The notes below the pieces were generated by a model. That model searched no databases. It was not told the origin of the DNA and saw only the letters and a program-made list of their open reading frames with translations. A program made the translations under genes and the position numbers. A stretch of 64,000 bases of DNA from Phycisphaerales bacterium (GTDB lineage: Bacteria; Planctomycetota; Phycisphaerae; Phycisphaerales; UBA1924): positions 2,036 through 66,035 of the forward strand of contig JAEPQP010000002.1 of assembly GCA_017640485.1 (NCBI GenBank), read 5' to 3'. Shown here piece by piece: positions 25,360 through 64,000 of the stretch. Every line of letters starts with the position of its first letter. Positions within the stretch are counted from its first letter, which is position 1.

Positions 25360-25431
25360 TCATCATACTTCTTCGTAATCTGCAACACCAGATTTCACCC
25401 TCTTTTCACACGCAAACCCCTACAATACAAC

Positions 25432-26688
25432 ATGCTCTGGCAACCCTCCATCCCCGATTCCTACCACACGCTCTCCGAAGCAGAGCTCACCGCGCGCATC
25501 GAAGACCGCCGCAAACAACTCGCCACCAAACTCCTCATCCTCGGCCACCACTACCAGATGGACTCCGTCGTCCAGCACGCCGACTTCATGGGTGACTCAC
25601 TCAAGCTCGCACAACTCGCCGCGTCCGTCGTCGAAGACCGCGCCGCCGCAGGAACCCCCGTAGAACACATCATCTTCTGCGGCGTCCACTTTATGGCCGA
25701 AACCGCCGACATCCTCACACCCGACTCCGTCCAGGTCATCCTCCCAGACCTCTCCGCAGGATGCTCCATGGCCGACATGGCCGACTACGAACAAACCGTC
25801 GAAGCATGGGAGGTCATCCACGAATCACTCAAAGACCAAGGATGGACTGGACGCATCATCCCCATCACCTATGTCAACTCCACCGCCGCCATCAAAGCTT
25901 TCGTCGGAGATCACGGCGGCGCCTGCTGCACCTCCTCCAATGCCGGACAAGTCTTCGAATGGGCCATGAACGGCGGCACCGAACCCCGCAAACCAGACGA
26001 AGACATCAAAGTCCTCTTCCTCCCCGACCAACACCTCGGACGCAACACCTCCGCCGCCTTCGGCATCGATGTCGTCAACAACACCTGCGTCTACGACCCC
26101 AAGAAAACAGAACGCGGCGAACCCCTCGGCGGAGCGTCCGCCGAGCAGTTATACAACGCCGCAACCATCTTGTGGGCAGGACATTGCAGCGTCCACAAAC
26201 TCTTCGCACCAGAACACTGCGCCCAGATCCGCGAAGACAACAAGAACCTCGAAGCCGGGATCGAACCCATGCAGATCCTCGTCCACCCCGAGTGCTGCAA
26301 AGAAGTCGTCGACCTCGCCGACCTCGCCGGATCCACCGAGTTCATCATCAACACGATCAAGAACGCTCCCCCCGGATCCCGCTGGGCCATCGGCACCGAA
26401 GTCCACCTCGTCAACCGCCTCGCAAACGCCCACAAAGAGCGAGGCGTCGAGGTCACCATGCTCTCCGATTGTCAGTGCCTCTGCACCACCATGTACCGCA
26501 TCAACCAGCCCCATCTCCTCTGGATCCTCGACGGCCTCTGCGCCCTCACCCCCGAAGGCACCCCCAACAAAGACAACAAGCAAATCGTCAACAATGTCGT
26601 GAGCGTCCATCCCGAAGCCCAGAAGCTCGCGATCCTCGCCCTCGATCGCATGCTCTCCCACACCGGCACCGGCGCCGTCAAAGCATAA
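25432..26688 (+). CDS. nadA: quinolinate synthase
   Basis: ILGHHYQ, FCGVHFMAETADIL, CSMADM, VNSTAAIKAF, HCSVH and VHPEC are NadA Fe-S ligand and substrate motifs. Start ATG 25432 within ORF 24961..26688. Confidence 0.9.
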   Translation: MLWQPSIPDSYHTLSEAELTARIEDRRKQLATKLLILGHHYQMDSVVQHADFMGDSLKLAQLAASVVEDRAAAGTPVEHIIFCGVHFMAETADILTPDSVQVILPDLSAGCSMADMADYEQTVEAWEVIHESLKDQGWTGRIIPITYVNSTAAIKAFVGDHGGACCTSSNAGQVFEWAMNGGTEPRKPDEDIKVLFLPDQHLGRNTSAAFGIDVVNNTCVYDPKKTERGEPLGGASAEQLYNAATILWAGHCSVHKLFAPEHCAQIREDNKNLEAGIEPMQILVHPECCKEVVDLADLAGSTEFIINTIKNAPPGSRWAIGTEVHLVNRLANAHKERGVEVTMLSDCQCLCTTMYRINQPHLLWILDGLCALTPEGTPNKDNKQIVNNVVSVHPEAQKLAILALDRMLSHTGTGAVKA

Positions 26689-26787: not shown

Positions 26788-27333
26788 TTGTTCCACGTGG
26801 AACATCCGCGCGACCATTCTGACCAATCCAAAACCCAGGACCTCGCCTCCGAGATCTCGCGAGCCGGATTTTTCATCGCAGGCATTGTCCTCATCGTCGC
26901 CGCCGCGATCCTCCCGCTCCGCGCCGATCTCGAATGGACCACCCACCAGCGCAACCTCGCGCTGGTTCAGGAACAAGAAAACGCCGCACGAAACGCGTCG
27001 TACCAGCAGATGATCGACGCGATCGATCAGCAAAATCCCGACACGCTCCGATTGCTCGCCCAGTCCAACCTCGGCGTGATCCCCGCCGATCACAACGCGC
27101 TGGTCGCGCCAGGCGCGAAGCCCGACCCGATGGTGTTCGAGCTTCTGGAACCGACGCCGTTGGATCGTCCGGAGTTCGCGCCGCGTTACTCTCGGCTTGA
27201 GCGTTTGGTCATGGTCCCCGAAACCAGGTTGTGGGTCATCGCGGGTGGGATGCTGCTGGTGTTGCTGGGATTGCTGCCGCAAGCGAAGCCGTCGCCGCGT
27301 GCCCAGACCCGCCGGGTCGTCCACGCCGGCTAG
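26788..27333 (+). CDS. hypothetical two-TM protein (weakly supported; overlaps parS and the strand-bias switch)
   Basis: TTG or GTG start inside parS. The translation has two hydrophobic helices and a polar middle, so it looks protein-like, but there is no family match. Codon third positions change from C-ending to G-ending midway. Confidence 0.4.
   Translation: MFHVEHPRDHSDQSKTQDLASEISRAGFFIAGIVLIVAAAILPLRADLEWTTHQRNLALVQEQENAARNASYQQMIDAIDQQNPDTLRLLAQSNLGVIPADHNALVAPGAKPDPMVFELLEPTPLDRPEFAPRYSRLERLVMVPETRLWVIAGGMLLVLLGLLPQAKPSPRAQTRRVVHAG
26789..26804. promoter_or_regulatory. parS (ParB-binding centromere-like site), perfect palindrome TGTTCCACGTGGAACA
   Basis: This exact 16-mer differs from the widely used consensus TGTTNCACGTGAAACA only by the symmetric A-to-G change that makes it a perfect palindrome. 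Only one copy was noticed in the window. Confidence 0.7.
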
Positions 27334-27341
27334 AGTGTGCG

Positions 27342-28307
27342 ATGCCATCTGCGCGATCAGTTCAGAACTATCCTGTGATTGTCGGCCCGACCGCCGGGGG
27401 GAAGACGGCGTTGTCGATCGCGCTGTGCCGAGAATACGAACGCCGAGGACTCCCAGCGGGACACGCCGTCGCGGCAGATGCGTACCAAATCTATCGAGGC
27501 ATGGACATCGGGACCGCGAAACCGACGGCCGAGGAACGCACGCAAGCCGAGCATCATCTGATTGATCTGGTTGATCCGAGTGAGCGATTCACAGTCGCGG
27601 ATTGGCTTGAGCATGCCGAGGGGGTGACGGATCGATTGATCGAGGATGGCATCCATCCGGTCGTCGTCGGCGGGACAAACCTCTATATCCAAACCTTTCT
27701 CGACGGCATGTTCCACGCGCCGGAGCCGAGCGATGAAGTCATGGCGCAGGTCGAAGCCATGGAACAAGCTGAGCGCCGCGCGAAGTTGCTGGAGGTTGAT
27801 CCAGAGGCGCACGAGCGGATCGATTCCAATGATCTGCGTCGGACCCGGCGAGCGCTCGCGGTGTATCTCCAGACCGGGACGCCGATCACCGAGCTGCAGC
27901 GCCAGTGGGATCAGGAGGATCATGCGCGCGAGGACGCGATGCTGATCGGATTGCACTGGCCGAGCGAAGAGATCAATCCGAGGATCAACGCGCGCGTCAA
28001 GCACATGATCGAGCTGGGATTGGTCGAAGAAGCTCGTGGCTTGTGGGAGTCGGGGATGCTCGGCGATCAGGCGTCCCAAGCGATTGGGTACAAGCAACTC
28101 ATCGAGCACTTCGAGGGTCGGTGCTCACTCGACGATGCGATCGAGCGGATCAAGATCGACACGCGCCGATTCGCAAAGAACCAACGCACTTGGCTCAAGC
28201 GTTTCCGGGGCAGACGGCACGGTTCGATCTGGATCGACGCACCGGGTCGAGATGCGGATACCATGGCTCATGAGATTGTGGATCGGCTGATGGAACCCAG
28301 CGGCTGA
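27342..28307 (+). CDS. miaA: tRNA dimethylallyltransferase
   Basis: VIVGPTAGGKTALSIAL (P-loop), YRGMDIGTAKP, HHLIDL and VVGGTNLY. ATG 27342. Confidence 0.9.
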   Translation: MPSARSVQNYPVIVGPTAGGKTALSIALCREYERRGLPAGHAVAADAYQIYRGMDIGTAKPTAEERTQAEHHLIDLVDPSERFTVADWLEHAEGVTDRLIEDGIHPVVVGGTNLYIQTFLDGMFHAPEPSDEVMAQVEAMEQAERRAKLLEVDPEAHERIDSNDLRRTRRALAVYLQTGTPITELQRQWDQEDHAREDAMLIGLHWPSEEINPRINARVKHMIELGLVEEARGLWESGMLGDQASQAIGYKQLIEHFEGRCSLDDAIERIKIDTRRFAKNQRTWLKRFRGRRHGSIWIDAPGRDADTMAHEIVDRLMEPSG

Positions 28308-50599: not shown

Positions 50600-51098
50600 A
50601 GTCAGTTTTCTCCCACGGGGTGACCCCCATTTATTGAGACTCTCCAAACGTTCTCGGGTGTAATGTGCGCCTGTTTTGGGGGAGTGCAAGCAATTGTGCG
50701 AGAAAGACTTGGGTAATTGAGAAATTATCAGCGGAGTGTTTGGTCCCATAAGAACTCGAGCGGTGGGGAGGGGGCTGGTTGATTTGGGTGCTGTCAGGAG
50801 CGTCCGATTTTGAGCGGGTCGACTCGGCGAGCGGATTTAGGGTCTGATAATTTCGTGGAGCATGAAGAGTGAGAGGGTATAGATTTTTCTAAATACCTGA
50901 TAATACGGCAGATAAGACCCGCTGCAGTGGGTGTTTATGGGGCTGGTGTGTCGGGTTTTGGGATTCAGGTGAGCGGATGGAGCAGCCGTGGATAGGCTGT
51001 CGGATGCGGAGAAATCGGGGTGACTGGCTGCGATAGGGAGGGGTGCTTGGTAGGATGAGGCTTGGTTCGCGCAGCTGATGATCGGGATGGAGCGGTTG

Positions 51099-54000
51099 AT
51101 GTCGGAAGAGAAGAAGTCGAACTCGTTTGTTCACTTGCACTTACACTCAGAATACTCGCTTCTGGATGGTGGGAATCGGACGGATAAGCTCGTCAAGCGT
51201 GTGAAAGAGCTCGGGATGGATGCGGTCGCGATCACGGATCACGGCAACATGCACGCGGCGGTGAAGTTCTACAACATCGCGCGGAAGGAGGGGGTCAAGC
51301 CGATTCTGGGGGTGGAGGCGTATGTGGCGCCGAGGGATCGGCACGATCGGACCTATACAGGGGTCGCGGATGGTGGGTACCACTTGGTCCTGCTCGCGGA
51401 GAACAACACGGGGTGGGAGAACCTGCTGTATCTCTGTTCTGAGGCGTACATCAACGGGTTTTACTACAAGCCTCGGATGGATCGCGAGATTCTGGAGAAG
51501 CACTCGGAGGGGTTGATCGCGATCAATGGTCACCTGGGTTCTGAGATTGCGTTCCACATGGTCAAGTACGAGCAGACTCGGGACCAGTCGCACTGGGACG
51601 CGGCTCGGGATGTCGCGAAGTGGCACGCGGAGACTTTCAGGGGGACAGAGAACGGGCCTGGGTTTTATCTGGAGTTGCAGCACCACATCGGTCTGCAGAA
51701 CTCGATCAATCCGCATGTGATCAAGCTGGCGCGGGAGATGGATCTGCCTTTGGTGTGTGACAATGACTCGCACTTCCTGATGGAAGAGGATCACGATGCG
51801 CACGATACGCTGATTTGTATTTCGACTGGGAAGGTCAAGAACGATCCGGAGCGGATGCGGTATCCGACTGAGTTGTATGTGAAGTCTCCAGAGGAGATGC
51901 GCTCGCTGTTTGAATCCGACGAGTACAACAACGAGGAGTTCGGGGACGCGGGGATCGAGGCGCTGGACAATACGGTCTCGATCGCGGATCGGTGTGATGT
52001 GGAGCTCCCGATCGGCGCGAACCACGCGCCGGTGGTGGTGGTCAAGGCGCCGGCGAAGAGCAAACTCCCCAAGCACAACGCGAAGGAGTTTGGTGGGGAT
52101 CTGACGGCGTGGTTCAAGGATTTTTGCACGAACTTCGAGCTTGAGCCTGCGAATGATCCGGATCTGGATCAGGCGTCGTTGAAGAAGGAGTGTGACAAGA
52201 CGCTGCGGTTGTTGTGTGAGGCGGGGATGGTGTGGCGGTATGGGCCGAGCATCATGGACCACTTGCATAAGGGGATCGAGGGGATCGATGAACTCCCTGA
52301 GGGGATGGACGGCGAGGACGCGGATGGGTGGCGGAAGTGGGCGCGATTGAATCGTGAGCTCAAGATCCTTGCGGATAAGTTGATCAGCGCGTACTTCTTG
52401 ATTGTGTGGGACTTTGTGAACTGGGGGCGTCAGCGCGGGATTCCGTCGCTGGCTCGTGGTTCGGGTGTGGGGACGATGACGGGGTTCGTGCTTGGGTTGT
52501 CCAATGCGTGTCCGGTGCATTACGGGTTGCTGTTTGAGCGGTTCACTGATCCGGATCGAACGGAGTATCCCGATATTGATATTGATCTGTGTCAGAACGG
52601 GCGCGGCGAGGTGATCCAGTATGTGCGCGAGAAGTACGGGCATGTGGCGCAGATCATCACCTTTGGGACGCTCAAAGCACGCGCGGCGATCCGCGATGTC
52701 GCGCGGGTGATGGAGTTCCCGCTCGGGGATGCGGACAAGCTCGCGAAGTTGATCCCGGAGGATCTGGGGATCACGCTCGAGAAGGCGCTGGAGCAGGAGC
52801 CCGATCTCAAGGATTGGTATGACCAGGACCCAACGGTCAAGCGGATCATTGATACAGGGCGGACCTTCGAGGGGCAGGCGCGGCACTCATCGGTGCACGC
52901 GGCGGGGGTGATTGTCGCGACGCGTCCGTTGCATGAGGTTGTGCCTCTGTATAAGCAATCGGGGAGTGATGATGTCATCACGCAGTGGGATGGTCCGACC
53001 TGCGAGATGATGGGTTTGCTCAAGATGGACTTCCTTGGGCTGCGGACGCTGTCGGTGATCGAGGGGGCGAAAGAGCGGATCCAAGCGACGCTTCCTGAGG
53101 AGAAGATCTGGGAAGCGGTGGGGCGCGAGAAGAAGAAGGGTGCGGATCATCCGTTGGATCTTGAGCGGTTGAAGTTCGATGACCCGCTGGTGTTTGATAT
53201 GTTCCAGCGCGGGGACACGACGGGGGTGTTCCAGTTTGAATCGGGGGGGATGCGCCGGCTGCTGACGGAGATGAAACCCGACCGGCTGGAAGATCTGATC
53301 GCGGCCAACGCGTTGTTCCGTCCGGGTCCGATGGACCTGATCCCGGATTACAACATGCGCAAGCACGGGCAGGCGGAGGTCCCCAAGGTGCACTCGATCG
53401 TGGATCATTTCACGGAAGAGACCTACGGCGTGATGATCTATCAGGAACAGGTCATGCAGATCGTGCACGAGCTGGGCGGGATTCCGCTGCGCAGCGCGTA
53501 CTCGTTGATTAAAGCGATCAGCAAGAAGAAAGAGAAGATCATCAACGCGGAGCGTCCGAAGTTCATCGAGGGCGCGGTCGAGAAGGGGCTGGATGCGAAG
53601 AAGGGTGAGGAGCTCTTTGATCTGATCCTGAAGTTTGCGGGGTATGGTTTCAATAAGTCGCACTCGACGGGGTATGCGATCGTTGCGTATCAGACGGCAT
53701 ACCTGAAGACCTATTTCCCGAATCATTACATGGCGTCGTTCCTGAGCTTTGAATCGCAGGCGCAGAAGGTCAGCGATTGGATCCCGTATCTGGATGACTG
53801 CAAGCGGACGCGGTTTATTGATCCGAAGTCTGGGGAAGTGATCCGGACAGGAGTGGAGGTCAATGCGCCGGATGTGAATCTGTCGCGGACGGACTTCAGC
53901 GTGGTCTTTGGTGAGAACGAGGAACCGAGCGCGAGCGGGGGGCAGGTGCGGTTCGGGATGCGGGCGATCAAGGGAGCGGGGACCAAGGCGATCGAGGCGA

Positions 54001-55079
54001 TCGTGAAGGAGCGGGACATCGGGGCGGATCCGGAGCAACCGGAGCGGAAACCCTTTGCGAGTCTGTTTGATTTTTGCGAGCGTGTGCCGAGTGGATCGGT
54101 GAACAAGGCGACGATCGAGGCGTTGATCCGCGCGGGGGCGTTTGATGCGGTGCATTCTCGTGAGGAGCGAGCGTCGATGATCGCGAGCATCGAGGCGGCG
54201 GTGAGCGCGGGGCAGTCGATCGCGGCGGACAAGGCGGCGGGGCAGGGCGCGTTGTTTGGGTTTGGTGGAGGGGAGGAAGTGCAAACGCAGGAGATGCCTG
54301 AGACGCCGCTGATACAGGTCGAGGGGTGGAGCGAGAGCGAGACGCTCCGTCAGGAGAAGGAGACGCTGGGGTTTTATGTGTCCAGTCATCCGATGGAGGA
54401 GTGGGACGACTGGGCGCGGGTGTTTACGCCATTGAAGGTTGGGGAGTTGAAATCGCTGCCTCAGGACAAGCGGGTGATTGTGCCTGCGATGGTGCAGGGG
54501 GTGCGGACGATCGTGACGAAGAACGGTCGGAGCGCGGGACAGAAGATGGCGATCCTGACGGTGGAGGATGCGACGGGGACAACGGACGCGGTGATGTTCT
54601 CGAATGTGTACGCGCAGTTCGGGCATCTGACGGACACGGACATGCCCAAGTTCTTCATGGGGCGGTTGGATCACTCGCGTGGTGATGCGCAAATTATCTT
54701 GGATCGTGTGGTGCCGATAGATGGGCATCCGCTGGAGCAGGGGACGATCCAGGTGATGGTGCGGAGCAGTCGAGTGAACGGGAACGCGGGTGAGGTGCTG
54801 GATCGGGTGCGCGGGATCCTGGAGACCCCTGCGGACGCGAGTGATTTGTCGATCGGGAAGAGTGCGCGTCCGGTGATGGTGATCGCGGAGATTGAAGGGG
54901 CGTGGGTGCTGATTGAGCCCGGCGGGGGGGAGGACGGCAAGAGCGTGAAGACGCATATGCGTCCGGAGTTAGTGCGATCGATCTGTCAGGAGTTGGGGGC
55001 GGACTCGGTGCGGCTGAGCGGGGGGGTGAGCGTGGAGCTCAATAAGGATGATCGGCGCAGGCAGTACGCGAAGAACTGA
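51099..55079 (+). CDS. dnaE: DNA polymerase III subunit alpha
   Basis: N-terminal PHP domain FVHLHLHSEYSLLDG, a palm/fingers region (RGSGVGT) and GYGFNKSHS with an OB-fold C-terminal region. About 1326 aa. ATG 51099 (alternative 51078). Confidence 0.95.
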   Translation: MSEEKKSNSFVHLHLHSEYSLLDGGNRTDKLVKRVKELGMDAVAITDHGNMHAAVKFYNIARKEGVKPILGVEAYVAPRDRHDRTYTGVADGGYHLVLLAENNTGWENLLYLCSEAYINGFYYKPRMDREILEKHSEGLIAINGHLGSEIAFHMVKYEQTRDQSHWDAARDVAKWHAETFRGTENGPGFYLELQHHIGLQNSINPHVIKLAREMDLPLVCDNDSHFLMEEDHDAHDTLICISTGKVKNDPERMRYPTELYVKSPEEMRSLFESDEYNNEEFGDAGIEALDNTVSIADRCDVELPIGANHAPVVVVKAPAKSKLPKHNAKEFGGDLTAWFKDFCTNFELEPANDPDLDQASLKKECDKTLRLLCEAGMVWRYGPSIMDHLHKGIEGIDELPEGMDGEDADGWRKWARLNRELKILADKLISAYFLIVWDFVNWGRQRGIPSLARGSGVGTMTGFVLGLSNACPVHYGLLFERFTDPDRTEYPDIDIDLCQNGRGEVIQYVREKYGHVAQIITFGTLKARAAIRDVARVMEFPLGDADKLAKLIPEDLGITLEKALEQEPDLKDWYDQDPTVKRIIDTGRTFEGQARHSSVHAAGVIVATRPLHEVVPLYKQSGSDDVITQWDGPTCEMMGLLKMDFLGLRTLSVIEGAKERIQATLPEEKIWEAVGREKKKGADHPLDLERLKFDDPLVFDMFQRGDTTGVFQFESGGMRRLLTEMKPDRLEDLIAANALFRPGPMDLIPDYNMRKHGQAEVPKVHSIVDHFTEETYGVMIYQEQVMQIVHELGGIPLRSAYSLIKAISKKKEKIINAERPKFIEGAVEKGLDAKKGEELFDLILKFAGYGFNKSHSTGYAIVAYQTAYLKTYFPNHYMASFLSFESQAQKVSDWIPYLDDCKRTRFIDPKSGEVIRTGVEVNAPDVNLSRTDFSVVFGENEEPSASGGQVRFGMRAIKGAGTKAIEAIVKERDIGADPEQPERKPFASLFDFCERVPSGSVNKATIEALIRAGAFDAVHSREERASMIASIEAAVSAGQSIAADKAAGQGALFGFGGGEEVQTQEMPETPLIQVEGWSESETLRQEKETLGFYVSSHPMEEWDDWARVFTPLKVGELKSLPQDKRVIVPAMVQGVRTIVTKNGRSAGQKMAILTVEDATGTTDAVMFSNVYAQFGHLTDTDMPKFFMGRLDHSRGDAQIILDRVVPIDGHPLEQGTIQVMVRSSRVNGNAGEVLDRVRGILETPADASDLSIGKSARPVMVIAEIEGAWVLIEPGGGEDGKSVKTHMRPELVRSICQELGADSVRLSGGVSVELNKDDRRRQYAKN

Positions 55080-55090
55080 GTTGGCTTAGT

Positions 55091-55762
55091 TCATCCTTCC
55101 CAGCGGGTTTTGAGATCGTGGGGGATCTTCAGTAGGTCGAGGGCTTTGCCTACGGTGAAATCGACGAGGTCGTCGATTGATTGGGGGAGCAGGTACAGGC
55201 CGGGGTTGCAGGGTGCGATGGTGGCGCCTGCGAGGGTGAGTGTGCGCATGTTCTCGATGTCGATAAGATTCAGCGGGGACTCGCGATGGCAGATGATCAG
55301 GGGGTGGCGTTCTTTGAGGGTGACGGCGGCGGCGCGGCTCAGGAGGTTGGATCCTGATCCGGTTGCGATCGCGCCGAGGGAAGTCGATGAGCAGGGGAGG
55401 ACGACCATGCCGTTGTGGAGGAATGAGCCTGAGGCGATGGAGGCGCCGACATCTTTGTTGGGGTGCATGATGAGGCGGGAGTCGTAGAAGTCGCTGTGTT
55501 GATCAGCGGCGAGGTGGGGGGCGAGGGTCTGGAGGTTGAACTTGGTGATGTTCATTTCATCGGCGAGCAGGCGCTTGCCGTAGGTGGAGATGACGAGGTG
55601 GACCTCGTGTCCTTTGGTGAGGAGTTGGTCGAGGAGTCGGGTGGCGTAGACGGCTCCGGAGGCGCCGGTGATCGCGAGGATGTAGCGGTTTTGGGAGGGT
55701 TCTGGGGGAGATGCGGGCGGGGTGGTCTGCCTTGATGTCATGTAGGGTTTGGTGTTGGGCAT
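55091..55762 (-). CDS. ubiX: flavin prenyltransferase UbiX
   Basis: ILAITGASGAVYATRLL, VVLPCSSTSLGAIATG and PLIICHRESPL match the UbiX/Pad1 flavoprotein pattern. Confidence 0.85.
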   Translation of the reverse strand: MPNTKPYMTSRQTTPPASPPEPSQNRYILAITGASGAVYATRLLDQLLTKGHEVHLVISTYGKRLLADEMNITKFNLQTLAPHLAADQHSDFYDSRLIMHPNKDVGASIASGSFLHNGMVVLPCSSTSLGAIATGSGSNLLSRAAAVTLKERHPLIICHRESPLNLIDIENMRTLTLAGATIAPCNPGLYLLPQSIDDLVDFTVGKALDLLKIPHDLKTRWEG

Positions 55763-55894
55763 GCAAGGATCCTATGTGCATGGGAGGAGCGTGGGTTTCG
55801 TGTTGGGTCGGCACTATCATCAGTCGGGCACCACGATGGATATTCGGGTGCGACAGCGATGCAGACGCGTGAGAGCACGCGGCGGGAGATCGAA

Positions 55895-56581
55895 ATGGCA
55901 GGTTTGAAGCGGACGGTTCTTGGAGTGGTGATCGGGTCGGGGATTCTCGGGCTTGCGGCCGGGGGGTGCGTGAGTTATACGAATGTGCCTGTCCCGAGCA
56001 GCGCTCCGGCGTTTAAGCACGCGAACTCCGGCGCGTCGATCAAGTCGATCTCGGCGGCGATCGAGCGGGTGGTGCTCCGTCATCCGATGAAAGATGCGCA
56101 GGGGCGCTACGCGGTCAACCTCCCAGCGGGGACGACCCCTGAGACTGCGGAGAAGATCCTGGATCGGTTGTCGGACGGCGCGGTGATTCCTTGGGAGGGG
56201 ATGGACGAGTCGGTTCCGGTGTATCACATCTCGCGGATCTGGTTGCGCGGCGCGACGGGGAAGGTTGATGTGGTGTACCCGATCGATGCGGACACGGATG
56301 GCGGGGTGACAGCGTGGGTGCAGGGGGGTGATCGTTCGTGGTATGTCGAGCGTCTGCAGTACTGGGCGCCGGGGACCATCCCGACACCTCCGGTGTATGT
56401 CCCGATCGGGGATACGGAACGACGGGGTGAGATGATGACCGATGATGAGTACGAAGCGCCGGTTGACATGGACGAGCTCGAGTCGGCTCCGGAATCTCCG
56501 GCGGTCGATGAGTCGGTGCGTGAGCGGGCGGCGGAGCCTGAGCCTGATGATCAGGTGTTGTACCGCGAGATTGATGACTGA
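55895..56581 (+). CDS. putative lipoprotein with acidic C-terminal tail
   Basis: MAGLKRTVLGVVIGSGILGLAAGGC has a lipobox L-A-A-G-G-C. The C-terminus is D/E-rich. No family match. Confidence 0.55.
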   Translation: MAGLKRTVLGVVIGSGILGLAAGGCVSYTNVPVPSSAPAFKHANSGASIKSISAAIERVVLRHPMKDAQGRYAVNLPAGTTPETAEKILDRLSDGAVIPWEGMDESVPVYHISRIWLRGATGKVDVVYPIDADTDGGVTAWVQGGDRSWYVERLQYWAPGTIPTPPVYVPIGDTERRGEMMTDDEYEAPVDMDELESAPESPAVDESVRERAAEPEPDDQVLYREIDD

Positions 56582-56595
56582 TTGGAGCTGGGTCG

Positions 56596-57504
56596 ATGTG
56601 GACTGGTCGGAGCTTGCTGACGATGGATGGGGTCGATTCGGGCGCGGCGCGGTCGCTGCTGGATGCGGCGCATCGTGAATCGTGGCGCGGCGACGAGTTG
56701 GCGGGGAAGGTGGTTGCGAATCTGTTCTTCGAGGATTCCACGCGGACGCGGGTGAGTTTCTCGATGGCGGCGCAGACGCTCGGCGCGAAGGTGGTGGATC
56801 TGACGAGCAAGGGATCAAGCGTTGCGAAGGGGGAGACGCTATTGGATACGGCGTGGACGATCGAGGCGATGGGCGTTGATGCGATCGTGGTGCGGTCGGG
56901 AGATTCGGGGGTGGCGGAACTGATCGATGAACACACACAGTGCGCGGTGCTCAACGCGGGTGATGGGACGCATCAGCATCCGACGCAGGCGCTCACGGAT
57001 GCGTTGACGATCGGGCGGTCGCTGGGACTGAGCGATGGGTGGGACTTCGGTGGGCTGCGTGTTGCGATCGTTGGGGATGTGGTTTCCTCGCGCGTGGCGC
57101 GGAGCAATGTTGGTTTGCTGACGGGGCTGGGTGCGGAGGTGGTGCTTGTTGGTCCGCCGGGGATGGCGCCGAGCTCGCTTGAGTCGATGGGTTGCAGGGT
57201 GACGAGCGACTTTGATTCGGTGCTTGGAGAGTGCGACGCGGTGATGATGCTGCGGATTCAGTTTGAGCGCGGCGGGGGCGCGACGCTCGCATCAACGCGG
57301 GAGTACCACGCGCGGTTCGGGATGAACGAGGGGCGGCTTGAGCGGATGAAGGATCGCGCGATTGTGATGCATCCGGGTCCGATGAACCGGGGTGTGGAGA
57401 TCAGTGCGTCGGTTGCTGATGGGGAGCGGTCGGTCGTGCTCGAACAGGTGCGTGGCGGGGTGCTCGTCCGTCAGGCGGCGATGGCGCACGCGATCGGTCA
57501 CTGA
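56596..57504 (+). CDS. pyrB: aspartate carbamoyltransferase catalytic subunit
   Basis: FFEDSTRTRVSF (carbamoyl-phosphate site), HQHPTQAL and HPGPMNRGVEI. Confidence 0.9.
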   Translation: MWTGRSLLTMDGVDSGAARSLLDAAHRESWRGDELAGKVVANLFFEDSTRTRVSFSMAAQTLGAKVVDLTSKGSSVAKGETLLDTAWTIEAMGVDAIVVRSGDSGVAELIDEHTQCAVLNAGDGTHQHPTQALTDALTIGRSLGLSDGWDFGGLRVAIVGDVVSSRVARSNVGLLTGLGAEVVLVGPPGMAPSSLESMGCRVTSDFDSVLGECDAVMMLRIQFERGGGATLASTREYHARFGMNEGRLERMKDRAIVMHPGPMNRGVEISASVADGERSVVLEQVRGGVLVRQAAMAHAIGH

Positions 57505-57523
57505 GGTATTGGGCGTCTTTTGA

Positions 57524-57838
57524 TTAGGAGTGAGCCGGGACCGGTTTGTTGTCGGGCTGGTTTGTTGGTGGGGTCTGTGTTTGTTGGTTGGGTTGGTTGG
57601 GGATCCACCAGCGGGTGTGCGGGAACCGGTTGTGGAGCGCGTCGAGGAGGCCTCGGGGTGTTGCTCCGATGTGTGCGGGCTGACCACAGATGTGGGAGAT
57701 GGTTCCGGTGCGGAGGACGGGGTCAATTTTCCCCTGTGCGTAGAGGCCTTGGGTGGTTGGGGGTTCGGTGATCTGCGAACAGGTGTGGAGGATTCCCGCG
57801 GCGTCGATCCACCAGATGATGAGGTTTTGAGTGACCAT
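57524..57838 (-). CDS. hypothetical small protein (104 aa)
   Basis: ATG 57838 within ORF 57524..58048. The upstream part of that ORF is antisense to the tRNA. C-ending codons fit a minus-strand gene on this side. No family match. Confidence 0.3.
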   Translation of the reverse strand: MVTQNLIIWWIDAAGILHTCSQITEPPTTQGLYAQGKIDPVLRTGTISHICGQPAHIGATPRGLLDALHNRFPHTRWWIPNQPNQQTQTPPTNQPDNKPVPAHS

Positions 57839-57990
57839 ATCCGGACCTTTCAGAGGTGGGATCGGCGGATTGAGGGGGCGACTGAAGGCGGAATGGAGAA
57901 TTGAGTGTGGGGGGCGGGAGGGATTGCTTGACCTTGTGGGGTTGATTCCTAGGATGAATGCCCGGTGTGATGAGGTTATTGCGCTGTCTA

Positions 57991-58063
<73 letters not shown>

Positions 58064-58073
58064 CTTACAGAAA

Positions 58074-58105
58074 ACGCCGCTGGTTTGATGCCAGTGGCGT
58101 TTTTT
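58074..58105 (+). terminator. rho-independent terminator after tRNA-Ala
   Basis: ACGCCGCTGG-tttgatg-CCAGTGGCGT is a 10-bp stem with one G-U pair, followed by TTTTTT. Confidence 0.75.
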
Positions 58106-58135
58106 GGTGTCTAATGGAGATGACTGAATTTGGGT

Positions 58136-58167
58136 TTGACCCGCTGTGACCCGTTTGTTGACCCGCT
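58136..58167. repeat. three phased direct repeats of TGACCCG (TTGACCCGCT / GTGACCCGTT / TTGACCCGCT)
   Basis: TGACCCG starts at 58137, 58147 and 58159. The outer 10-mers are identical and lie 22 bp apart. Confidence 0.5.
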
Positions 58168-58275
58168 AGGTCGGCGGGGCAGTCATCATCGGATTGGGTT
58201 TGGGAATCAATCTTGAGTCGTGTATCATCTAACTAGGGAGTGGACAGTGAGATCCATTTCTCAGTAGGGACAATT

Positions 58276-61200
58276 ATGACTGAAGAGAATGATTCATCGG
58301 GCCATCCAAAGCTAAAGATTGAAGCAGTAACCAAAACGACATTTGCGGCGGCTCAGAATGCAGTCCCTATTCTGCGACAGATAGTTGTATCCAACGAATG
58401 TGACCAGCCATTTAGCAAGCTTCGATTGACAATGCAGCCTCAGCCTGCGTTCTGTAAAGCCAAAGAGTGGGCTATTGATCGTTTACCGGCGTTGGATGAG
58501 ATCCAGATCAGTGATCTTCAGGTTACGCTCGATTTCAGTGTGCTTGATCGACTCAATGAGGCCGAGCATGGGCAGTTGGCGTTTCGATTGTTTGACGGAG
58601 AAGAGCTGCTCGATGACCAAATAGTTCCAATTGAGTTGCTCGCTCGGGATGAATGGGGCGGCTCGACAGAGATGTCTCAAATCTTGGCAGCATTTGTTTC
58701 GCCGAATCATCCTCAAACATCTCAGATACTCAAAGAAGCATCAAGAATTCTTGAGAAGAGTGGTCACAATGGAGCATTGGATGGATACCAGTCCCGTGAT
58801 CCTCGCAGGGCTTATATGCTTGCAGCAGCTATTTGGTCTGCAATCAGTGGGATGGGACTCTCGTATGCGCAGCCTCCCCGGTCATTCGAGAAACAAGGGC
58901 AGAAGATCCGTGATCCGGGCAGCATTGCTGAGACAGGATTGGCGACATGTCTTGACACAACACTGCTGCTCTCAGCAGCATTTGAAGCTGTAAAGCTCAA
59001 CCCAGTTGTGATTTTTACGAATGGTCATGCATTCGTAGGCGTTTGGCTTGTTGATAAAACATTCCCAATGACGGTTGAGACCGATGTCACGGAAGTCCGC
59101 AAGGCTGTGGCCTCCAAGGAGTTCATGGTTTTAGAGTCTACATTGCTTACTCATCGTCCTGTCGTTGGCTTTGAGCAGGCAAGGGAGAATGGGAAGAGCC
59201 AACTAGCCGAGGACCGTGAACATGAGTTTCATATGGCTGTTGATATTGCACGGGCTCGTGCAGCGGGTATCCGTCCGATTTCGAATCTGCAATCTGGCAT
59301 AGTTTCGTCATCAGACGTAGACGACACGGTAGCACCGGCGTCATTGCCGAAGTTTCCGGGATTCGACATGATTCCGGCTGAGTATGTTGAAGAGTTGACA
59401 GCTTCGCCTTCTGACCGGTTAGAGAGATGGCAGAAAAAGCTCCTCGACTTGTCGCTGCGTAATCGCTTGCTCAATTTTTCTGATACTCGCCAGACTCTTG
59501 GATTCGTTTGTGCTGATGTTCCATCCCTTGAAGATGCGCTTGCGGATGGGAAGAAGTTTCGGGTGATTTCTCTGAAAGATGAGAATCCGATTGGAAATCG
59601 TGACCCAAAATTGTACAAGCAACAGACCGGGCGTGATATACAGCATGATTTTTCGGCAACTGCGTTCACGAAGGGACAAGTTTGTGCAGTTGAATCTGGT
59701 AAGGAGATGCAGTCTCGGTTGACTACGCTCTATCGGAAAGCCAAGAGCGATTTGGCAGAGGGCGGAACAAATACACTGTTTATGGCTGTTGGTTTTTTGA
59801 GGTGGAAGAAGGACATCAAGGATGCCAGGTCTTACAAAGCTCCATTGCTGCTGTTGCCTATCAAGCTCACGAGGCGATCGGCGAAATCCAGTTACTACAT
59901 TTCACATCATGAAGATGATGTCGTATTCAATCAAACACTTCTTGAGTATCTTGAACAAGAGTTTGGATTATCGATTCCCGCTCTGAGAGGGGATCTTCCT
60001 GAAGACCATTCAGGTCTTGATATTAAACTGATTTTCGAGATCATGAAACAGGCCGTTCGTGAAGTGCCAGGCTTTGAGGTCGTTGAAGACATTGCCGTTT
60101 CGACGTTCTCGTTCTCGAAGTATCTGATGTGGAAAGATTTGGTTGATCGAACGGATAGTCTGAAAAACAATCGACTGGTCAGGCATTTACTTGATAATCC
60201 AACCGAGCGTTTCGCCGATGATGGCGGGGACTTTCCACAGCCTGAGAGCATCGATCAACGAATTAGTCCGGCAAATATCTTTACTCCCCTGCCTGCTGAT
60301 AGCTCGCAACTCGCTGCGGTCGTTGCTGCGGAATCAGGGAAGGATTTTGTTATCATCGGGCCGCCGGGTACGGGGAAAAGTCAGACGATTGCCAACATGA
60401 TTGCGCACTGTTTGGCTCATGGGAAGACTGTACTCTTTGTTGCGGAGAAATCTGCGGCGCTTGATGTCGTGTACAGGCGTCTCAAGGCATATGGGCTTGC
60501 GGATGCGTGTCTGGAGCTTCATTCAAATAAGACCGATCGGAAGTCAGTGATTGCGCAGTTGGGTGCGGCTTGGGACCGTTCGTCTCGGGATACTGAAGAC
60601 GAGTGGATCCGGTTGACTGAAACACTGAAAGTACAACGGGACGAGCTCAACCTCTATGTAAACGAACTCCACCAGCCGGGAAGCCACGGATACAGCGTGT
60701 ATGAGGGGATCGGTTTCCTGGTCGGAAACAAACCCAAGTTTGAGCTTTCGTTTGCTGGGGTTGAATCGCACGACCAGGAGAGCTTTCAGTCACTAGTAGA
60801 AGTGACAGAGCGGCTGGCACTGACTCACTCTGCGGTTGCAGATTGCCAATCGTTAAGCGGGATCGAGAAAACAGAATGGTCATTTGAATGGCAGCGGGAG
60901 CTTCTCAAGTCTTCCGAGCAGTTTCACAATGAAACGCTTGGATTGGTATCTGCGTGCAATCGGCTTGAGGAACATTTGGGACTTGTGGAGAAAGTGGACT
61001 ACTCAAATTCTGAACTCTCGGCTTATCTCAACCTTGCAAAAGCTATCGGGTCCGTGGCGGCAGGTGACTACCGGTTTGTGTTGAGTAGTGATGTGGAGTC
61101 TATCTCTGATTCAATTGATGAGCTTGAACAACATGTTCTTTCTTATTCAGAGAACAGCGGTTTGTTAGAGGCCAGCTTCGAGGATCAGGAGATTCTCCGT

Positions 61201-64000
61201 ATACCCATCGATGAGATTGACCGAGATTGGAGAAAGGAGTCTGCTAAGCTCTGGCCGTTCTCTGCGCTCGGGAAGCGAAAGATTCAGAAACTGCTCCAGA
61301 GCTATGCATCCAGCGGTGTCACAAATCCAGAAGCCGATGTATCGAGACTAATCAAGATTAAGAGTGCCTTGGAATCTGTGGCGACAAGCCCAAGCAGTTC
61401 TCTACCTTGCTTTGATGGTGTGCGTTCTGATTTGGCACAGGTTCGGTTGTGTGTTGAAAATGCGGTAAGCTTGAAGAAAGCTGTTGCGGAACTTACTCGG
61501 ATTGGTGCTGATAAAGCAAAGCTGGAAGAATCTTTGGGAGATGTGTTGACCTTGGATAGTAAGTCATCTCCTGTCGGAGAGGCGGCCCAAGGGCTGCGAG
61601 AAGCAAGACGCCGATTTGATCAGGCAGGCAAGATATACCTAGGGATGACAGGTGGTAAGCTCTCGGGTTCTTCGATGCGAGGTCTTGTCGACGAGTTGTC
61701 CGAAGTGCAGCGGCAATCCAACAGACTCAACGATTGGGTAAAGTGGACAAGTATCCGGAAAGAAGCCTCGGCTCGGGGGCTCAATCCGGTTGTCGAAGCA
61801 TTGACAGCTGGTTTGATAGATGATCCAAAGACCGATTTCATGGTTGCCTACTTTGATTGGTGGTTGCCGTTGTCGATTGACTTGAAGCCAAAGCTTCGTA
61901 GTTTTGCTCATTGGGAACAAGAAAACCATATTGAAAAGTTCAGGGAGTTGATTGAATCAGTCCAAAGTCTTGCTACACTTCAGGTTCGGCGTGCGGTGTC
62001 TCATGGGCTACCGTCACGTGATGATGTTCCTCGTAAATCAGAGCTAGGCTTGCTTCGGCATCAACTAGGACTCCAGCGACCCAGCCAATCTATTCGTGGG
62101 CTTATTGAAGGTATGCCAGAGTCGTTTACCAAGCTGACGCCATGTGTGTTGATGTCGCCACTCTCTGTCGCACAATATCTACCTGCGGAGCAGGCGTCAT
62201 TTGATATGGTGATTTTTGATGAAGCGTCTCAGATAACAACATGGGATGCGGTTGGTGCAATTGCTCGTGGTAGGCAATCGATTATTGTCGGTGATCCGAA
62301 GCAGCTACCGCCTACAAACTTCTTTGGGCGGACAAATGACGAAGAAGATGAAGAACTCGCCTTGCATGAGCGCGATCTCGCAAGTATTTTGGATGAAGCG
62401 TCAGCCGCAGGTTTACCGCTACATCAACTCAACTGGCACTATCGAAGCCGAGACGAGGGGCTGATTGCGTTCTCAAATCACCACTACTACGGCCATAGGC
62501 TTGTGACTTTCCCATCCCCCAAGACCGAATCTGATGCGGTTCAGTTCCACAGAGTAGATGGTGTATATGCCCGCGGATCTGGTAGGACGAATGAAATAGA
62601 AGCAAAGGCGATTGTTGAATACATGATTGCTCGGCTCAATGATTGGGTACAACTACCAGAGGAACATCGGCTCTCAATCGGTGTTATTACCTTTAATGCT
62701 CCTCAGCAAGAACTGATTCTTGATCTTTTAGATCTTGAGCGCTCAAATCATCCCGAGTTGGAGTGGTTCTTCTCTGAAGAGAGAGAAGAGCCTGTGATTG
62801 TGAAGAATCTTGAGAATATACAAGGCGATGAACGAGACGTGATGCTGTTCTCGATTACATTTGGGCGTGATAGTGCCGGCAAGTTACCGATGGATTTCGG
62901 AGCAGTTAATCGACTGGGCGGCGAAAAACGACTCAATGTTGCCGTTACACGAGCCAAGTCAGAGTTCCATGTTTTTTCATCCATATCCGCAGAAGACATC
63001 GATACCAGGCGGGCAAAAGGGCTTGGGGTGCAGCATCTCAAAAACTATCTTGATTTCGCTGAACGAGGTGCGATTGCATTACCAGCAATGGATGAAGGGT
63101 CTCTTGGGCCGGCAGAGAATCCGTTTGAGGAATCAGTAGCAGAAGCGCTTCGTTCTAGAGGATGGGAAGTGCGTACACAGATTGGAGTTTCTGGTTATAG
63201 GATAGATCTAGGCGTAGTACACCCAGATCATGCGGGGGCGTTCCTTGCAGGCGTCGAGTGTGATGGCGCTACTTACCATAGTTCTGCCACTGCAAGAGAT
63301 CGTGACCAAATCCGTGAAGGCGTGCTTCGACATTTAGGGTGGGAAATACTTCGTGTTTGGTCTACAGATTGGTTTATGCACTCAAAGTCCGCATTGGATC
63401 GAATCGATGAACTGTTGCATCAACTTCTGGAATCCAGCCGGGAAATTGAAAAGGAGGCGGAAGATGATGGGCAGCACGAGGCTGACAATGAAGAAGTGCC
63501 TGAGGCTAGTGAAAAACTAGACCTTGAAGAAGAGACGCTGTATGCAAGTCGGGTAACTGTTGATGAGACGCATGATTCGAGCGTGAATCAGGATCAAGAA
63601 CTCCCGGAAGATCTGTGTGTCAATGTAGAACAGTTCTTTGAGTGGAGCTATACAGAGACACTCAAGTCGATAATTAATCATGTTGTGGCAAATCAAGGGC
63701 CAATTTCGGAAAGAATGCTGTGTAGGTCTGTGGCTCGGATTCATGGGTGGCAGCGTGCGGGCAGGCGTATCCAAGAGCGTGTGAAAGCTTGTCTTGGAGA
63801 GAATGAGTGTCATGAAGAGAATGGCAACGTCTTCATTTGGGAATCAGGGACTTTTGCAGGGGTGATTCCGTTCAGGCCGCACTTAGAAAGATCTACTCGT
63901 GATATTTCTCAATCGGAGATTCTAGGGCTTATTCAAGAGCAGCCGCATGTTCAAATGGCAGATGATCCAGCAAAAGAAGTTGCCAATCTGATGGGATTAG
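58276..64000 (+). CDS. giant DUF4011-like / SF1 (Upf1-DNA2-like) helicase / Vsr-DUF559-like endonuclease / DUF3320-like protein, 3'-partial (>1908 aa); Hhe-like candidate defence gene
   Basis: Manual translation from ATG 58276; the frame is open to the window end and is not in the ORF track. Motifs: GLATCLD (Cys codon 58948-58950) and NGHAFVGVW (His codon 59026-59028); RLERWQKKLLDLSLRNRLLNF and GGTNTLFMAVGFLRW (DUF4011-like, about 59410-60140); Walker A GPPGTGKSQT 60358-60381; VIFDEASQ (DEAS 62218-62229); VGDPKQLPP; NWHYRSR; LNVAVTRAK 62932-62958; GYRIDLGV...ECDGATYH...GWEILRVWSTDW (about 63125-63375); tail from about 63600. Confidence 0.85.
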   Translation, partial: MTEENDSSGHPKLKIEAVTKTTFAAAQNAVPILRQIVVSNECDQPFSKLRLTMQPQPAFCKAKEWAIDRLPALDEIQISDLQVTLDFSVLDRLNEAEHGQLAFRLFDGEELLDDQIVPIELLARDEWGGSTEMSQILAAFVSPNHPQTSQILKEASRILEKSGHNGALDGYQSRDPRRAYMLAAAIWSAISGMGLSYAQPPRSFEKQGQKIRDPGSIAETGLATCLDTTLLLSAAFEAVKLNPVVIFTNGHAFVGVWLVDKTFPMTVETDVTEVRKAVASKEFMVLESTLLTHRPVVGFEQARENGKSQLAEDREHEFHMAVDIARARAAGIRPISNLQSGIVSSSDVDDTVAPASLPKFPGFDMIPAEYVEELTASPSDRLERWQKKLLDLSLRNRLLNFSDTRQTLGFVCADVPSLEDALADGKKFRVISLKDENPIGNRDPKLYKQQTGRDIQHDFSATAFTKGQVCAVESGKEMQSRLTTLYRKAKSDLAEGGTNTLFMAVGFLRWKKDIKDARSYKAPLLLLPIKLTRRSAKSSYYISHHEDDVVFNQTLLEYLEQEFGLSIPALRGDLPEDHSGLDIKLIFEIMKQAVREVPGFEVVEDIAVSTFSFSKYLMWKDLVDRTDSLKNNRLVRHLLDNPTERFADDGGDFPQPESIDQRISPANIFTPLPADSSQLAAVVAAESGKDFVIIGPPGTGKSQTIANMIAHCLAHGKTVLFVAEKSAALDVVYRRLKAYGLADACLELHSNKTDRKSVIAQLGAAWDRSSRDTEDEWIRLTETLKVQRDELNLYVNELHQPGSHGYSVYEGIGFLVGNKPKFELSFAGVESHDQESFQSLVEVTERLALTHSAVADCQSLSGIEKTEWSFEWQRELLKSSEQFHNETLGLVSACNRLEEHLGLVEKVDYSNSELSAYLNLAKAIGSVAAGDYRFVLSSDVESISDSIDELEQHVLSYSENSGLLEASFEDQEILRIPIDEIDRDWRKESAKLWPFSALGKRKIQKLLQSYASSGVTNPEADVSRLIKIKSALESVATSPSSSLPCFDGVRSDLAQVRLCVENAVSLKKAVAELTRIGADKAKLEESLGDVLTLDSKSSPVGEAAQGLREARRRFDQAGKIYLGMTGGKLSGSSMRGLVDELSEVQRQSNRLNDWVKWTSIRKEASARGLNPVVEALTAGLIDDPKTDFMVAYFDWWLPLSIDLKPKLRSFAHWEQENHIEKFRELIESVQSLATLQVRRAVSHGLPSRDDVPRKSELGLLRHQLGLQRPSQSIRGLIEGMPESFTKLTPCVLMSPLSVAQYLPAEQASFDMVIFDEASQITTWDAVGAIARGRQSIIVGDPKQLPPTNFFGRTNDEEDEELALHERDLASILDEASAAGLPLHQLNWHYRSRDEGLIAFSNHHYYGHRLVTFPSPKTESDAVQFHRVDGVYARGSGRTNEIEAKAIVEYMIARLNDWVQLPEEHRLSIGVITFNAPQQELILDLLDLERSNHPELEWFFSEEREEPVIVKNLENIQGDERDVMLFSITFGRDSAGKLPMDFGAVNRLGGEKRLNVAVTRAKSEFHVFSSISAEDIDTRRAKGLGVQHLKNYLDFAERGAIALPAMDEGSLGPAENPFEESVAEALRSRGWEVRTQIGVSGYRIDLGVVHPDHAGAFLAGVECDGATYHSSATARDRDQIREGVLRHLGWEILRVWSTDWFMHSKSALDRIDELLHQLLESSREIEKEAEDDGQHEADNEEVPEASEKLDLEEETLYASRVTVDETHDSSVNQDQELPEDLCVNVEQFFEWSYTETLKSIINHVVANQGPISERMLCRSVARIHGWQRAGRRIQERVKACLGENECHEENGNVFIWESGTFAGVIPFRPHLERSTRDISQSEILGLIQEQPHVQMADDPAKEVANLMGL

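Follow-up and report, generated by a model that had tools for sequence, protein, structure and literature searches.

A ProA anti-phage family gene of probable horizontal origin at a tRNA-Ala(GGC) site in a marine Phycisphaerales bacterium

We analyzed a 64,000-nucleotide stretch of DNA from a Phycisphaerales bacterium (GenBank assembly GCA_017640485.1, contig JAEPQP010000002.1, positions 2,036 to 66,035 of the forward strand), hereafter called the window. Its right end holds a region of low G+C content (GC) that begins at a tRNA-Ala(GGC) gene and is occupied by one very long open reading frame (ORF) of the ProA anti-phage family. Judging by sequence, the host is a marine Phycisphaerales metagenome-assembled genome (MAG), as are the hosts of the best ProA relatives. 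The tRNA-Ala(GGC) gene (57991-58064, + strand) anchors the region and is the sole tRNA found by ARAGORN in the 64-kb window. To its left lie native genes, each assigned through an NCBIfam equivalog: dnaE (51078-55079, +), ubiX (55091-55762, -), and pyrB (56596-57504, +), which encodes aspartate carbamoyltransferase and served as the marker of the native left flank. The order dnaE, ubiX, a gene for a 240-aa protein, pyrB, and tRNA-Ala(GGC) is conserved among relatives, whose loci are designated here by L numbers. The pyrB synteny is kept in L001, L082-L086, L093, L130, L201, and L206, and pyrB is followed by the tRNA in all relatives examined. The tRNA is followed in turn by an intrinsic terminator (58068-58107, +), recognized by RNA folding as a hairpin with a T-run (-29.2 kcal/mol, z = -6.9); none of 200 shuffled sequences equaled it.

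The base composition changes at this point. In 500-nt bins, GC is 0.59-0.66 over positions 54000-57999 and 0.46-0.52 over positions 58000-64000. Across the window, the native 1-kb bins (n = 57) have a mean GC of 0.591 (sd 0.027, minimum 0.516) and those of the island (n = 5) a mean of 0.488 (maximum 0.511), with no overlap, which bears out the drop right after the tRNA and terminator described in an original prediction made from the sequence of this DNA. GC at third codon positions (GC3) is 0.46 in the giant ORF versus 0.67-0.81 in native genes; pyrB, for example, has a GC of 0.65, a GC3 of 0.77, and a third-position GC skew of +0.52. The same prediction held that the strand bias in G and C is absent from the island. 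We found it weakened rather than absent, the ORF having a third-position skew of +0.29 compared with +0.39 to +0.68 in its native neighbors (right of ~27 kb). The prediction also placed the start of the island after the tRNA; the edge lies formally inside the tRNA, at position 58017 in the anticodon stem. As a separate observation, native third-position skews in this genome reach values up to ±0.4 to 0.68, far above those of most bacteria, and the GC skew of the + strand is about -0.25 over the first 27 kb and about +0.3 from there to 58 kb. The sign changes near position 27000, between nadA (24961-26685) and miaA (27231-28304), and the flip resembles a replication origin or terminus or the breakpoint of a large inversion; no dnaA gene lies nearby.

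The giant ORF (58276-64000 in the window, + strand) begins with an ATG at 58276 and is open through the window end, with 1908 of its 1928 codons inside. Its end was read from a public European Nucleotide Archive contig (locus L081), whose PyrB is identical and which aligns to the window over 9037 nt with 0 mismatches. On this contig the 1928-aa protein is complete and has no internal stops, and the stop codon falls at window-equivalent 64060-64062, 62 nt past the window end. L081 extends the view by ~3.5 kb, to window-equivalent 67,504, so that 9.4 kb are visible after the tRNA. L081 also bears on the possibility that the junction is an assembly or binning artefact, namely a chimeric contig joined at a conserved tRNA. 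The source is a metagenome assembly, and tRNAs and repeats are classic points of mis-joining. However, L081 has different contig ends and an identical junction (although it perhaps derives from the same sample), and independent assemblies from other samples (L093, L130, and L201/L206) contain the junction of pyrB, tRNA, and ProA. We regard an artefact of this kind as hardly credible.

The protein matched the NCBIfam equivalog NF058533.1, "anti-phage protein ProA", with 2107.6 bits (cutoff 1500), protein residues 23-1907 aligning to positions 2-1900 of the 1903 in the profile. It also matched the PADLOC family PDC-S37 (1186.7 bits), whose status in PADLOC is that of a candidate only. The scores for Hhe were lower: 797 bits against the NCBIfam equivalog NF042953.1 (cutoff 2000), with a good match only in the C-terminal part, and 562 bits for a partial match to the PADLOC Hhe model. 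Because the ORF scores above the ProA cutoff and below that of Hhe, we assign it to ProA, as a relative of Hhe and not a member of that family.

Four regions of the protein were recognized by Pfam, all encoded on the + strand. A DUF4011 domain (aa 388-559; 59437-59952; PF13195, E 4.5e-45) is followed by a split Upf1-like superfamily 1B helicase core (60301-62979; AAA_11/AAA_12/AAA_30), the two halves of which (AAA_11/AAA_30, aa 676-772; AAA_11/AAA_12, aa 1294-1568) are separated by an insert of ~520 aa. The C-terminal part holds a Vsr-like/PD-(D/E)xK nuclease domain, MTES_1575 (aa 1617-1712; 63124-63411; PF18741, E 7.1e-34), and a DUF3320 domain (aa 1786-1834; 63631-63777; PF11784, E 7.1e-14). 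Helicase motifs are found at aa 695-702 (Walker A, GPPGTGKS), 1314-1319 (FDEASQ), and 1339-1346 (GDPKQLPP), and the nuclease motif residues are D1644 and E1661-C-D1663. The Walker A, DEASQ, GDPKQLPP, RID, and ECDG motifs are all present in ProA and invariant across 35 homologues. Sequence matches in the PDB were confined to the helicase core and included IGHMBP2, Sen1, and Dna2. These data agree with the original prediction of a single giant helicase-nuclease ORF, with no integrase in the window.

A Pfam scan of the N terminus alone (first ~380 residues) gave no match. AlphaFold2 modeled this part with high confidence (predicted local distance difference test score 88.4, predicted template modeling score 0.85) as a module of a beta-sandwich and an alpha/beta domain (aa 12-330; 58309-59265, +). 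The best multi-domain matches of the model in Foldseek were transglutaminases 2 and 3 (TG2/TG3), PNGase, and the putative protease BDI_1141 (E ~1e-4, template modeling score ~0.2). In a 35-sequence alignment, Cys-225 and His-251 are invariant and Asp-270 is nearly so (aa 221-274; window 58936-59097); in the model, Cys-225 sits at the N terminus of a helix and His-251 on the next strand. We tentatively propose from this model that the module may be a transglutaminase/papain-like domain. The module (~380 aa) lies outside the coverage of the Hhe and PDC-S37 hidden Markov models; a role as a sensor or as a second effector is conceivable.

We found no publication describing ProA or PDC-S37 in the literature searched, and no ProA on phage or viral contigs in IMG/VR. 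Hhe is credited with activity against lambda, T3, T7, and PhiV-1 in work by Gao et al. that is cited in a preprint (bioRxiv 10.1101/2022.06.16.496414), and the preprint itself reports that an E-to-A mutation in the Vsr domain abolished Hhe defence. By analogy with Hhe, and given its domains and intact motifs, ProA may couple ATP-driven movement along invading nucleic acid to cleavage by its nuclease. Upstream of the gene, a consensus scan found a promoter-like site, TTGGGA-17-TATCAT (58200-58228, +). The same stretch precedes ProA in L001 (at its fourth repeat) and L009, suggesting that a candidate promoter region may travel with the gene.

The content that follows tRNA-Ala differs from lineage to lineage. 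The genomes closest to that of the window by core genes are L082 (DnaE 92.5%, PyrB 90%) and L083-L086/L200 (PyrB ~81-82%), and ProA is absent from the site in the five closest (L082-L086) and in L200, which carry other cargo instead. The comparison of this locus that the original prediction had called for thus revealed presence and absence of ProA and polymorphic cargo. L082 has a 102-aa integrase fragment, a TetR gene, and an OEP/MFP/RND efflux pump, followed by a direct repeat of the 3' 48 nt of the tRNA (20176-20234) and a beta-lactamase-fold/TPR gene. L084, L085, and L200 (PyrB 82%) have a low-GC island (L084 11712-16720; L085 5111-10416) that encodes an AAA_15 ATPase, a BglII-type restriction-modification (R-M) pair, a 372-aa tyrosine integrase, and an excisionase-like HTH_17 protein (xis). 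The AAA_15 ATPase of L084/L085 is OLD/Gabija-like, with weak matches to AriA, Old, and GajA. The pair of 372-aa integrase and xis was found in L084, L085, L094, L097, and L200. After these two genes, L084/L085 carry amidoligase, RuvB-like, and XerD-like genes of intermediate GC, which may still be part of the island. L083 (PyrB 81%) has an element with a VapE-like primase/helicase. The more distant L001/L134 (PyrB 64-65%) show three small cassettes, with a partial tRNA at the end of each, and then ProA with GmrSD; the cassettes encode an S74-domain protein, a beta-lactamase/TPR protein, and a DUF3891 protein with an NAD-binding protein and MarR.

Several further observations concern these relatives. 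The ProA copy closest to that of the window, in L001 (10001-15484), is broken into a 1731-aa ORF and a 92-aa ORF and is followed by GmrSD, a type IV restriction gene; the gene may be decaying, or the break may be a sequencing error in that MAG. Peptidase_S74 proteins (endosialidase-chaperone, tail-fibre-like) recur as separate cassettes in several tRNA-Ala arrays (L001 3677-5002; L142 776-1645; L154 148-4788; L124 2502-2912). Upstream of ProA, L009 (945-6333) encodes a DprA/SLOG-domain protein, a fusion of a DEAD-box helicase with a phosphoribosyltransferase, and GmrSD; the first two may be a defence pair.

The partial tRNAs define the anatomy of the site. Partial copies were found in L001 (three copies), L009, L082, L097, L106, L124, L134, L153, L154, L165, and L203, and all start at window-equivalent 58017-58026. 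In the window, the equivalent of this attachment (att) core runs from the anticodon stem-loop to the 3' end of the tRNA (48 nt; 58017-58064, +). The direct repeat is single in L082 and forms tandem arrays in L001/L134, L154, L124, and L165. The repeated unit corresponds to window positions 58017-58170 and comprises the 3' part of the tRNA, the terminator, which is conserved in every repeat copy with compensatory changes in its stem, and a P'-arm-like block (58126-58170, +) with three direct TGACCCG heptamers, at 58137, 58147, and 58159. This triplet is unique in the 64-kb window (1 match, 0.02 expected), and the homology of the window to L082 and L084-L086 stops at ~58153-58170.

We scanned 31 cores for the geometry of the heptamers. 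The triplet lies at +115/+125/+137 from the start of the anticodon loop in 14 of 15 full tRNAs and in 11 of 16 partial copies. A doublet at -103/-91 accompanies 8 of the 16 partial copies and none of the 15 full tRNAs; it sits in a conserved P arm of ~115 nt upstream of the partial copies (consensus CTGACCCGCTTGCTGACCCGCTTTGAGTCCAAACGAGTCC). The diverged core of L009 fell outside the scan and by eye has both doublet and triplet. Site-specific integration by a tyrosine integrase predicts that attL has the structure B-O-P', with the sequence after the tRNA derived from the element, and that junctions between stacked elements have the structure P-O-P'. The restriction of the P-arm doublet to partial copies, at fixed spacing, matches this prediction, and the TGACCCG heptamers are candidate arm-type binding sites for an integrase. 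An anticodon-loop class of tRNA integration sites has reportedly been recognized, and the repeat boundaries in the anticodon stem fit it. In a metagenome scan with the 17-base heptamer pattern, 24 of 120 loci had tRNA-Ala or a partial copy; the other 96, with no tRNA-Ala context, were discounted as likely matches by chance. One locus in a soil-type metagenome (L099 3-72) has three tandem 22-nt heptamer patterns at 24-nt spacing, also without tRNA-Ala context, and is probably an unrelated tandem repeat.

The junction of tRNA, terminator, heptamers, and ProA seen in the window recurs in L093, L130, L201/L206, L009, and, at its last partial tRNA, L001. At the other side of the gene, a terminator follows the ProA stop codon in L093 and L206, and between it and DUF2130 lie the initial ~50 nt of the P arm. 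L001 has this truncated P arm too, right after GmrSD. Downstream of ProA, L009 has a terminator-plus-triplet copy without a tRNA core, then an insertion sequence transposase, and then the native ResB/CcsA genes. Thus, att-derived sequence flanks ProA on both sides in these relatives, whether ProA stands alone or with GmrSD, and the bracketed stretch holds no integrase.

Past ProA in the genome of the window, L081 shows a 118-nt spacer, which has neither a terminator nor a P arm, a DUF2130 gene (L081 9217-10421; window-equivalent 64180-65384), hsdM of a type I R-M system (L081 10684-12312; window-equivalent 65647-67275), and the start of a next gene. The original prediction had expected further cargo, an att repeat, and an integrase on an extended contig; in the added 3.5 kb the cargo appeared, as DUF2130 and hsdM, and the att repeat and integrase were not seen. 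The DUF2130 gene is frameshifted close to its C-terminal end (~L081 10200), leaving 328 aa and, in the other frame, a conserved tail of 71 aa, compared with the 470 aa of the intact homologue in L093. The split gene is either a pseudogene or the product of an assembly error. DUF2130 adjoins ProA in the genome of the window, in L093, where it likewise lies downstream, and in L002 and L006; considered as a named partner of ProA, it matched no NCBIfam or PADLOC family.

The low-GC block is short (~7.6 kb): it spans ProA and DUF2130 (GC 0.42-0.52), and at hsdM GC is back to 0.62-0.64. The hsdM gene itself (GC 0.60, GC3 0.77) has a third-position skew of -0.21, opposite to that of the resident genes. 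Its nearest relatives, 80-92% identical, are all from Phycisphaerales. Because its skew is opposed in a genome of strong skew, hsdM points to a recent arrival or an inversion despite the lack of a GC anomaly; we read it as a separate cassette that arrived not long ago from a related high-GC genome, or as an inversion. The R-M cassette was probably acquired separately from ProA, and earlier. In L142, a Joint Genome Institute contig, a separate unit of tRNA end, terminator, and heptamers lies directly before a 90%-identical hsdM, and homology between L142 and the genome of the window starts ~100 nt upstream of hsdM.

We examined two candidates for a distal att site in L081 and rejected both. The 15-mer CACTTGCAGAAAACG (L081 10254) resembles the tRNA end; it lies in the DUF2130 reading frame, is 1 of 48 similar repeat families, and was taken as a chance match. 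A stretch containing GCATGCAAG, at the junction of DUF2130 and hsdM, was considered as a decayed core, and 280 of 500 shuffled sequences and 62 of 94 control tiles equaled it.

The origin of ProA was assessed by comparing it with its hosts. The gene has a GC of 0.46-0.49 in six host backgrounds, in which the GC of pyrB ranges from 0.486 to 0.648, and its GC3 of 0.39-0.46 stands against host values of 0.67-0.81, with no amelioration. Between the genome of the window and L001, identity is 88.6% for ProA, 65.0% for PyrB, 71.0% for UbiX, and 47.7% for the neighboring 240-aa protein; between L130 and L206, it is 88.4% for ProA (N-terminal 267 aa) versus 65.0% for PyrB. Distant ProA relatives lie 3' of other tRNA-type genes, tRNA-Asn in L003 and the transfer-messenger RNA (tmRNA) gene in L002, and those of L003 and L004 occupy discrete lower-GC blocks. 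The host-independent GC, the incongruence with core genes, and the use of other tRNA-type sites argue for repeated horizontal delivery, for which hosts of ~0.49 GC (L130 and L002 type) are plausible donors by composition. The original prediction of foreign DNA 3' of tRNA-Ala is supported by these data, together with the tRNA repeats and the other cargo in relatives. It had further held that the same gene at the same locus with native composition would argue against an island; relatives do carry ProA there, yet never with native composition.

These observations also weigh on vertical inheritance, by which ProA would be ancestral at the site, its low GC would be intrinsic, and the nearest relatives would have lost or replaced it. 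Such a history would suit the position, orientation, and 5' region of ProA, which are alike in at least six lineages, and the positive third-position skew (+0.20 to +0.29) that is common to the copies at the tRNA-Ala locus and is lacking in other ProA copies. It would also suit the comparison between the genome of the window and L206, in which identity of ProA (69.8%) is comparable to that of PyrB (76.3%) and UbiX (70.8%). The unameliorated GC3, the two incongruent pairs of genomes, the copies beside tRNA-Asn and tmRNA, and the absence of ProA from all five closest relatives speak against it, and we consider vertical inheritance highly improbable. By its shared skew, the ProA lineage of the tRNA-Ala locus seems to have circulated for long within a high-skew clade in this orientation, which tells against a purely foreign picture.

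A different route for a horizontally acquired gene is homologous recombination between shared flanks, in which ProA, with or without DUF2130, would have been swapped in and the att units would be relics serving as portable homology. The left flank would be the block of tRNA, terminator, and heptamers, and the right flank a shared cassette, DUF2130 or hsdM. The left junction offers ~150 nt that are 85-97% conserved between genomes, and the recurrent adjacency of DUF2130 and ProA noted above would suit a swap of this kind, as would the lack of an integrase or attR in the visible part of the genome of the window. Between the genome of the window and L004, in both of which hsdM comes after ProA, the HsdM proteins are 92.5% identical and the ProA proteins only 66.6%, a pattern that fits exchange of a single cassette with its conserved flanks left in place. 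In L009, ProA lies between two terminator-plus-triplet copies, the downstream one coreless. However, homologous recombination alone does not create partial-tRNA duplications, the repeat boundaries at the anticodon stem are sharp, and the confinement of the P-arm doublet to partial copies, at a fixed distance, is the signature of site-specific integration. We judge the swap to be the less likely explanation, yet a serious alternative, with the qualification that homologous recombination and site-specific integration are not mutually exclusive.

Together, these data make a horizontal origin of ProA with site-specific integration at tRNA-Ala the probable explanation. Several results count against it. 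No integrase, distal partial tRNA, or P arm was found in the 9.4 kb after the tRNA (to 67,504), and the junction of DUF2130 and hsdM has no att remnant above chance. The att-bounded cassettes of the relatives contain no integrase, and beside the int/xis genes of L084, L085, and L094 no attR or P arm was recognizable; beside Int372/xis in L084/L085 we found only chance matches of 8-10 nt and no heptamers. That at least six lineages have ProA at this site, with a shared positive skew, points to a long association with this clade and orientation rather than to a single foreign arrival. In addition, the anti-phage role of ProA is taken from the name of its database family and is to be read as a prediction. 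Because neither an integrase nor a distal att site lies in the visible 9.4 kb, the mechanism of insertion in the genome of the window is inferred from relatives and not demonstrated.

Under site-specific integration, recombination of the tyrosine-integrase type would take place within the anticodon loop of tRNA-Ala, and positions 58017-58170 (tRNA 3' half, terminator, and heptamers) would be the element-derived O-P' side of attL. ProA would be the first cargo next to P', with its own promoter-like 5' region, and newer insertions at the same tRNA would shift older cassettes distally, as in the relatives. The integrase may have acted in trans, have been lost, or sit further downstream. The site between pyrB and tRNA-Ala appears from these comparisons to be a lineage-wide integration hotspot, and the data support the view that the region forms the end nearest the tRNA of a composite defence island, which is made up of ProA, an apparently decayed DUF2130 gene, and a type I R-M system.

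A bolder extension, about which we are doubtful, is that the site, instead of collecting decayed islands, is a cassette platform of small integrase-less units, often with a single defence gene such as ProA and each with a complete attP-like module, that are inserted, excised, and shuffled in trans by a shared tyrosine recombinase. The module may consist of a P arm of ~115 nt with two heptamers, the 48-nt core, the terminator, and a P' arm with three heptamers. If true, this would amount to an integron-like or satellite-of-tycheposon-like exchange of defence genes in Planctomycetota.

The tRNA-Ala islet is real and of a fairly ordinary defence-island type, with att anatomy that is well preserved in relatives. 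It does not overturn current understanding, as tRNA-anchored defence islands and hotspot turnover are already well established. ProA/PDC-S37, catalogued and apparently uncharacterized, is placed in a clear setting of mobility within a marine phylum that has received little study: it enters a single tRNA site in hosts whose GC spans 16 points. The resolved att anatomy makes both the recombination mechanism and the idea of single-gene defence cassettes moved in trans testable.

The gene itself is best compared with Hhe (Gao et al. 2020), also a single-gene system, with which it shares DUF4011, an AAA_11/AAA_12 helicase, a Vsr-like nuclease, and DUF3320 in the same order; the nuclease glutamate is required for Hhe defence, and the corresponding ProA motif is intact. 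ProA differs in scoring below the Hhe cutoff (797 versus 2000) and in its extra N-terminal module of ~380 aa. The arrays of L001/L134, L154, and L124 recall integrons in their small, often single-gene, recombinase-less cassettes with site modules. They have no IntI-type gene, attI, or attC hairpins, and differ in that the repeated site is derived from a tRNA and has phage attP-like arms.

Among islands, those of marine Prochlorococcus known as tycheposons (Hackl et al., bioRxiv 10.1101/2020.12.28.424599) include tRNA-Ala(GGC) among their seven targets, and in them partial tRNAs mark off one integration from the next. The islet resembles them in lying directly 3' of a tRNA, in its marine planktonic host, and in having defence genes among its cargo. 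In relatives, although not in the window, elements are likewise split by partial tRNAs, with newer ones pushing older ones distally, and a degenerate integrase fragment occurs in L082. It differs in belonging to Planctomycetota and in having no tycheposon-type recombinase or replication module in the window, and most cassettes of the Phycisphaerales arrays are without any integrase. In Pseudomonas aeruginosa, the core defence hotspots cDHS1 and cDHS2 (Johnson et al. 2023, PMC10250203), the second of which was found by way of the tmRNA gene ssrA, similarly present a fixed site between core genes with strain-specific defence sets. The Phycisphaerales site differs from these hotspots in that its cargo also includes an RND pump, beta-lactamase-fold/TPR proteins, and S74-domain proteins, and in that the att anatomy of core, P arm, and P' arm is retained at the cassette junctions.

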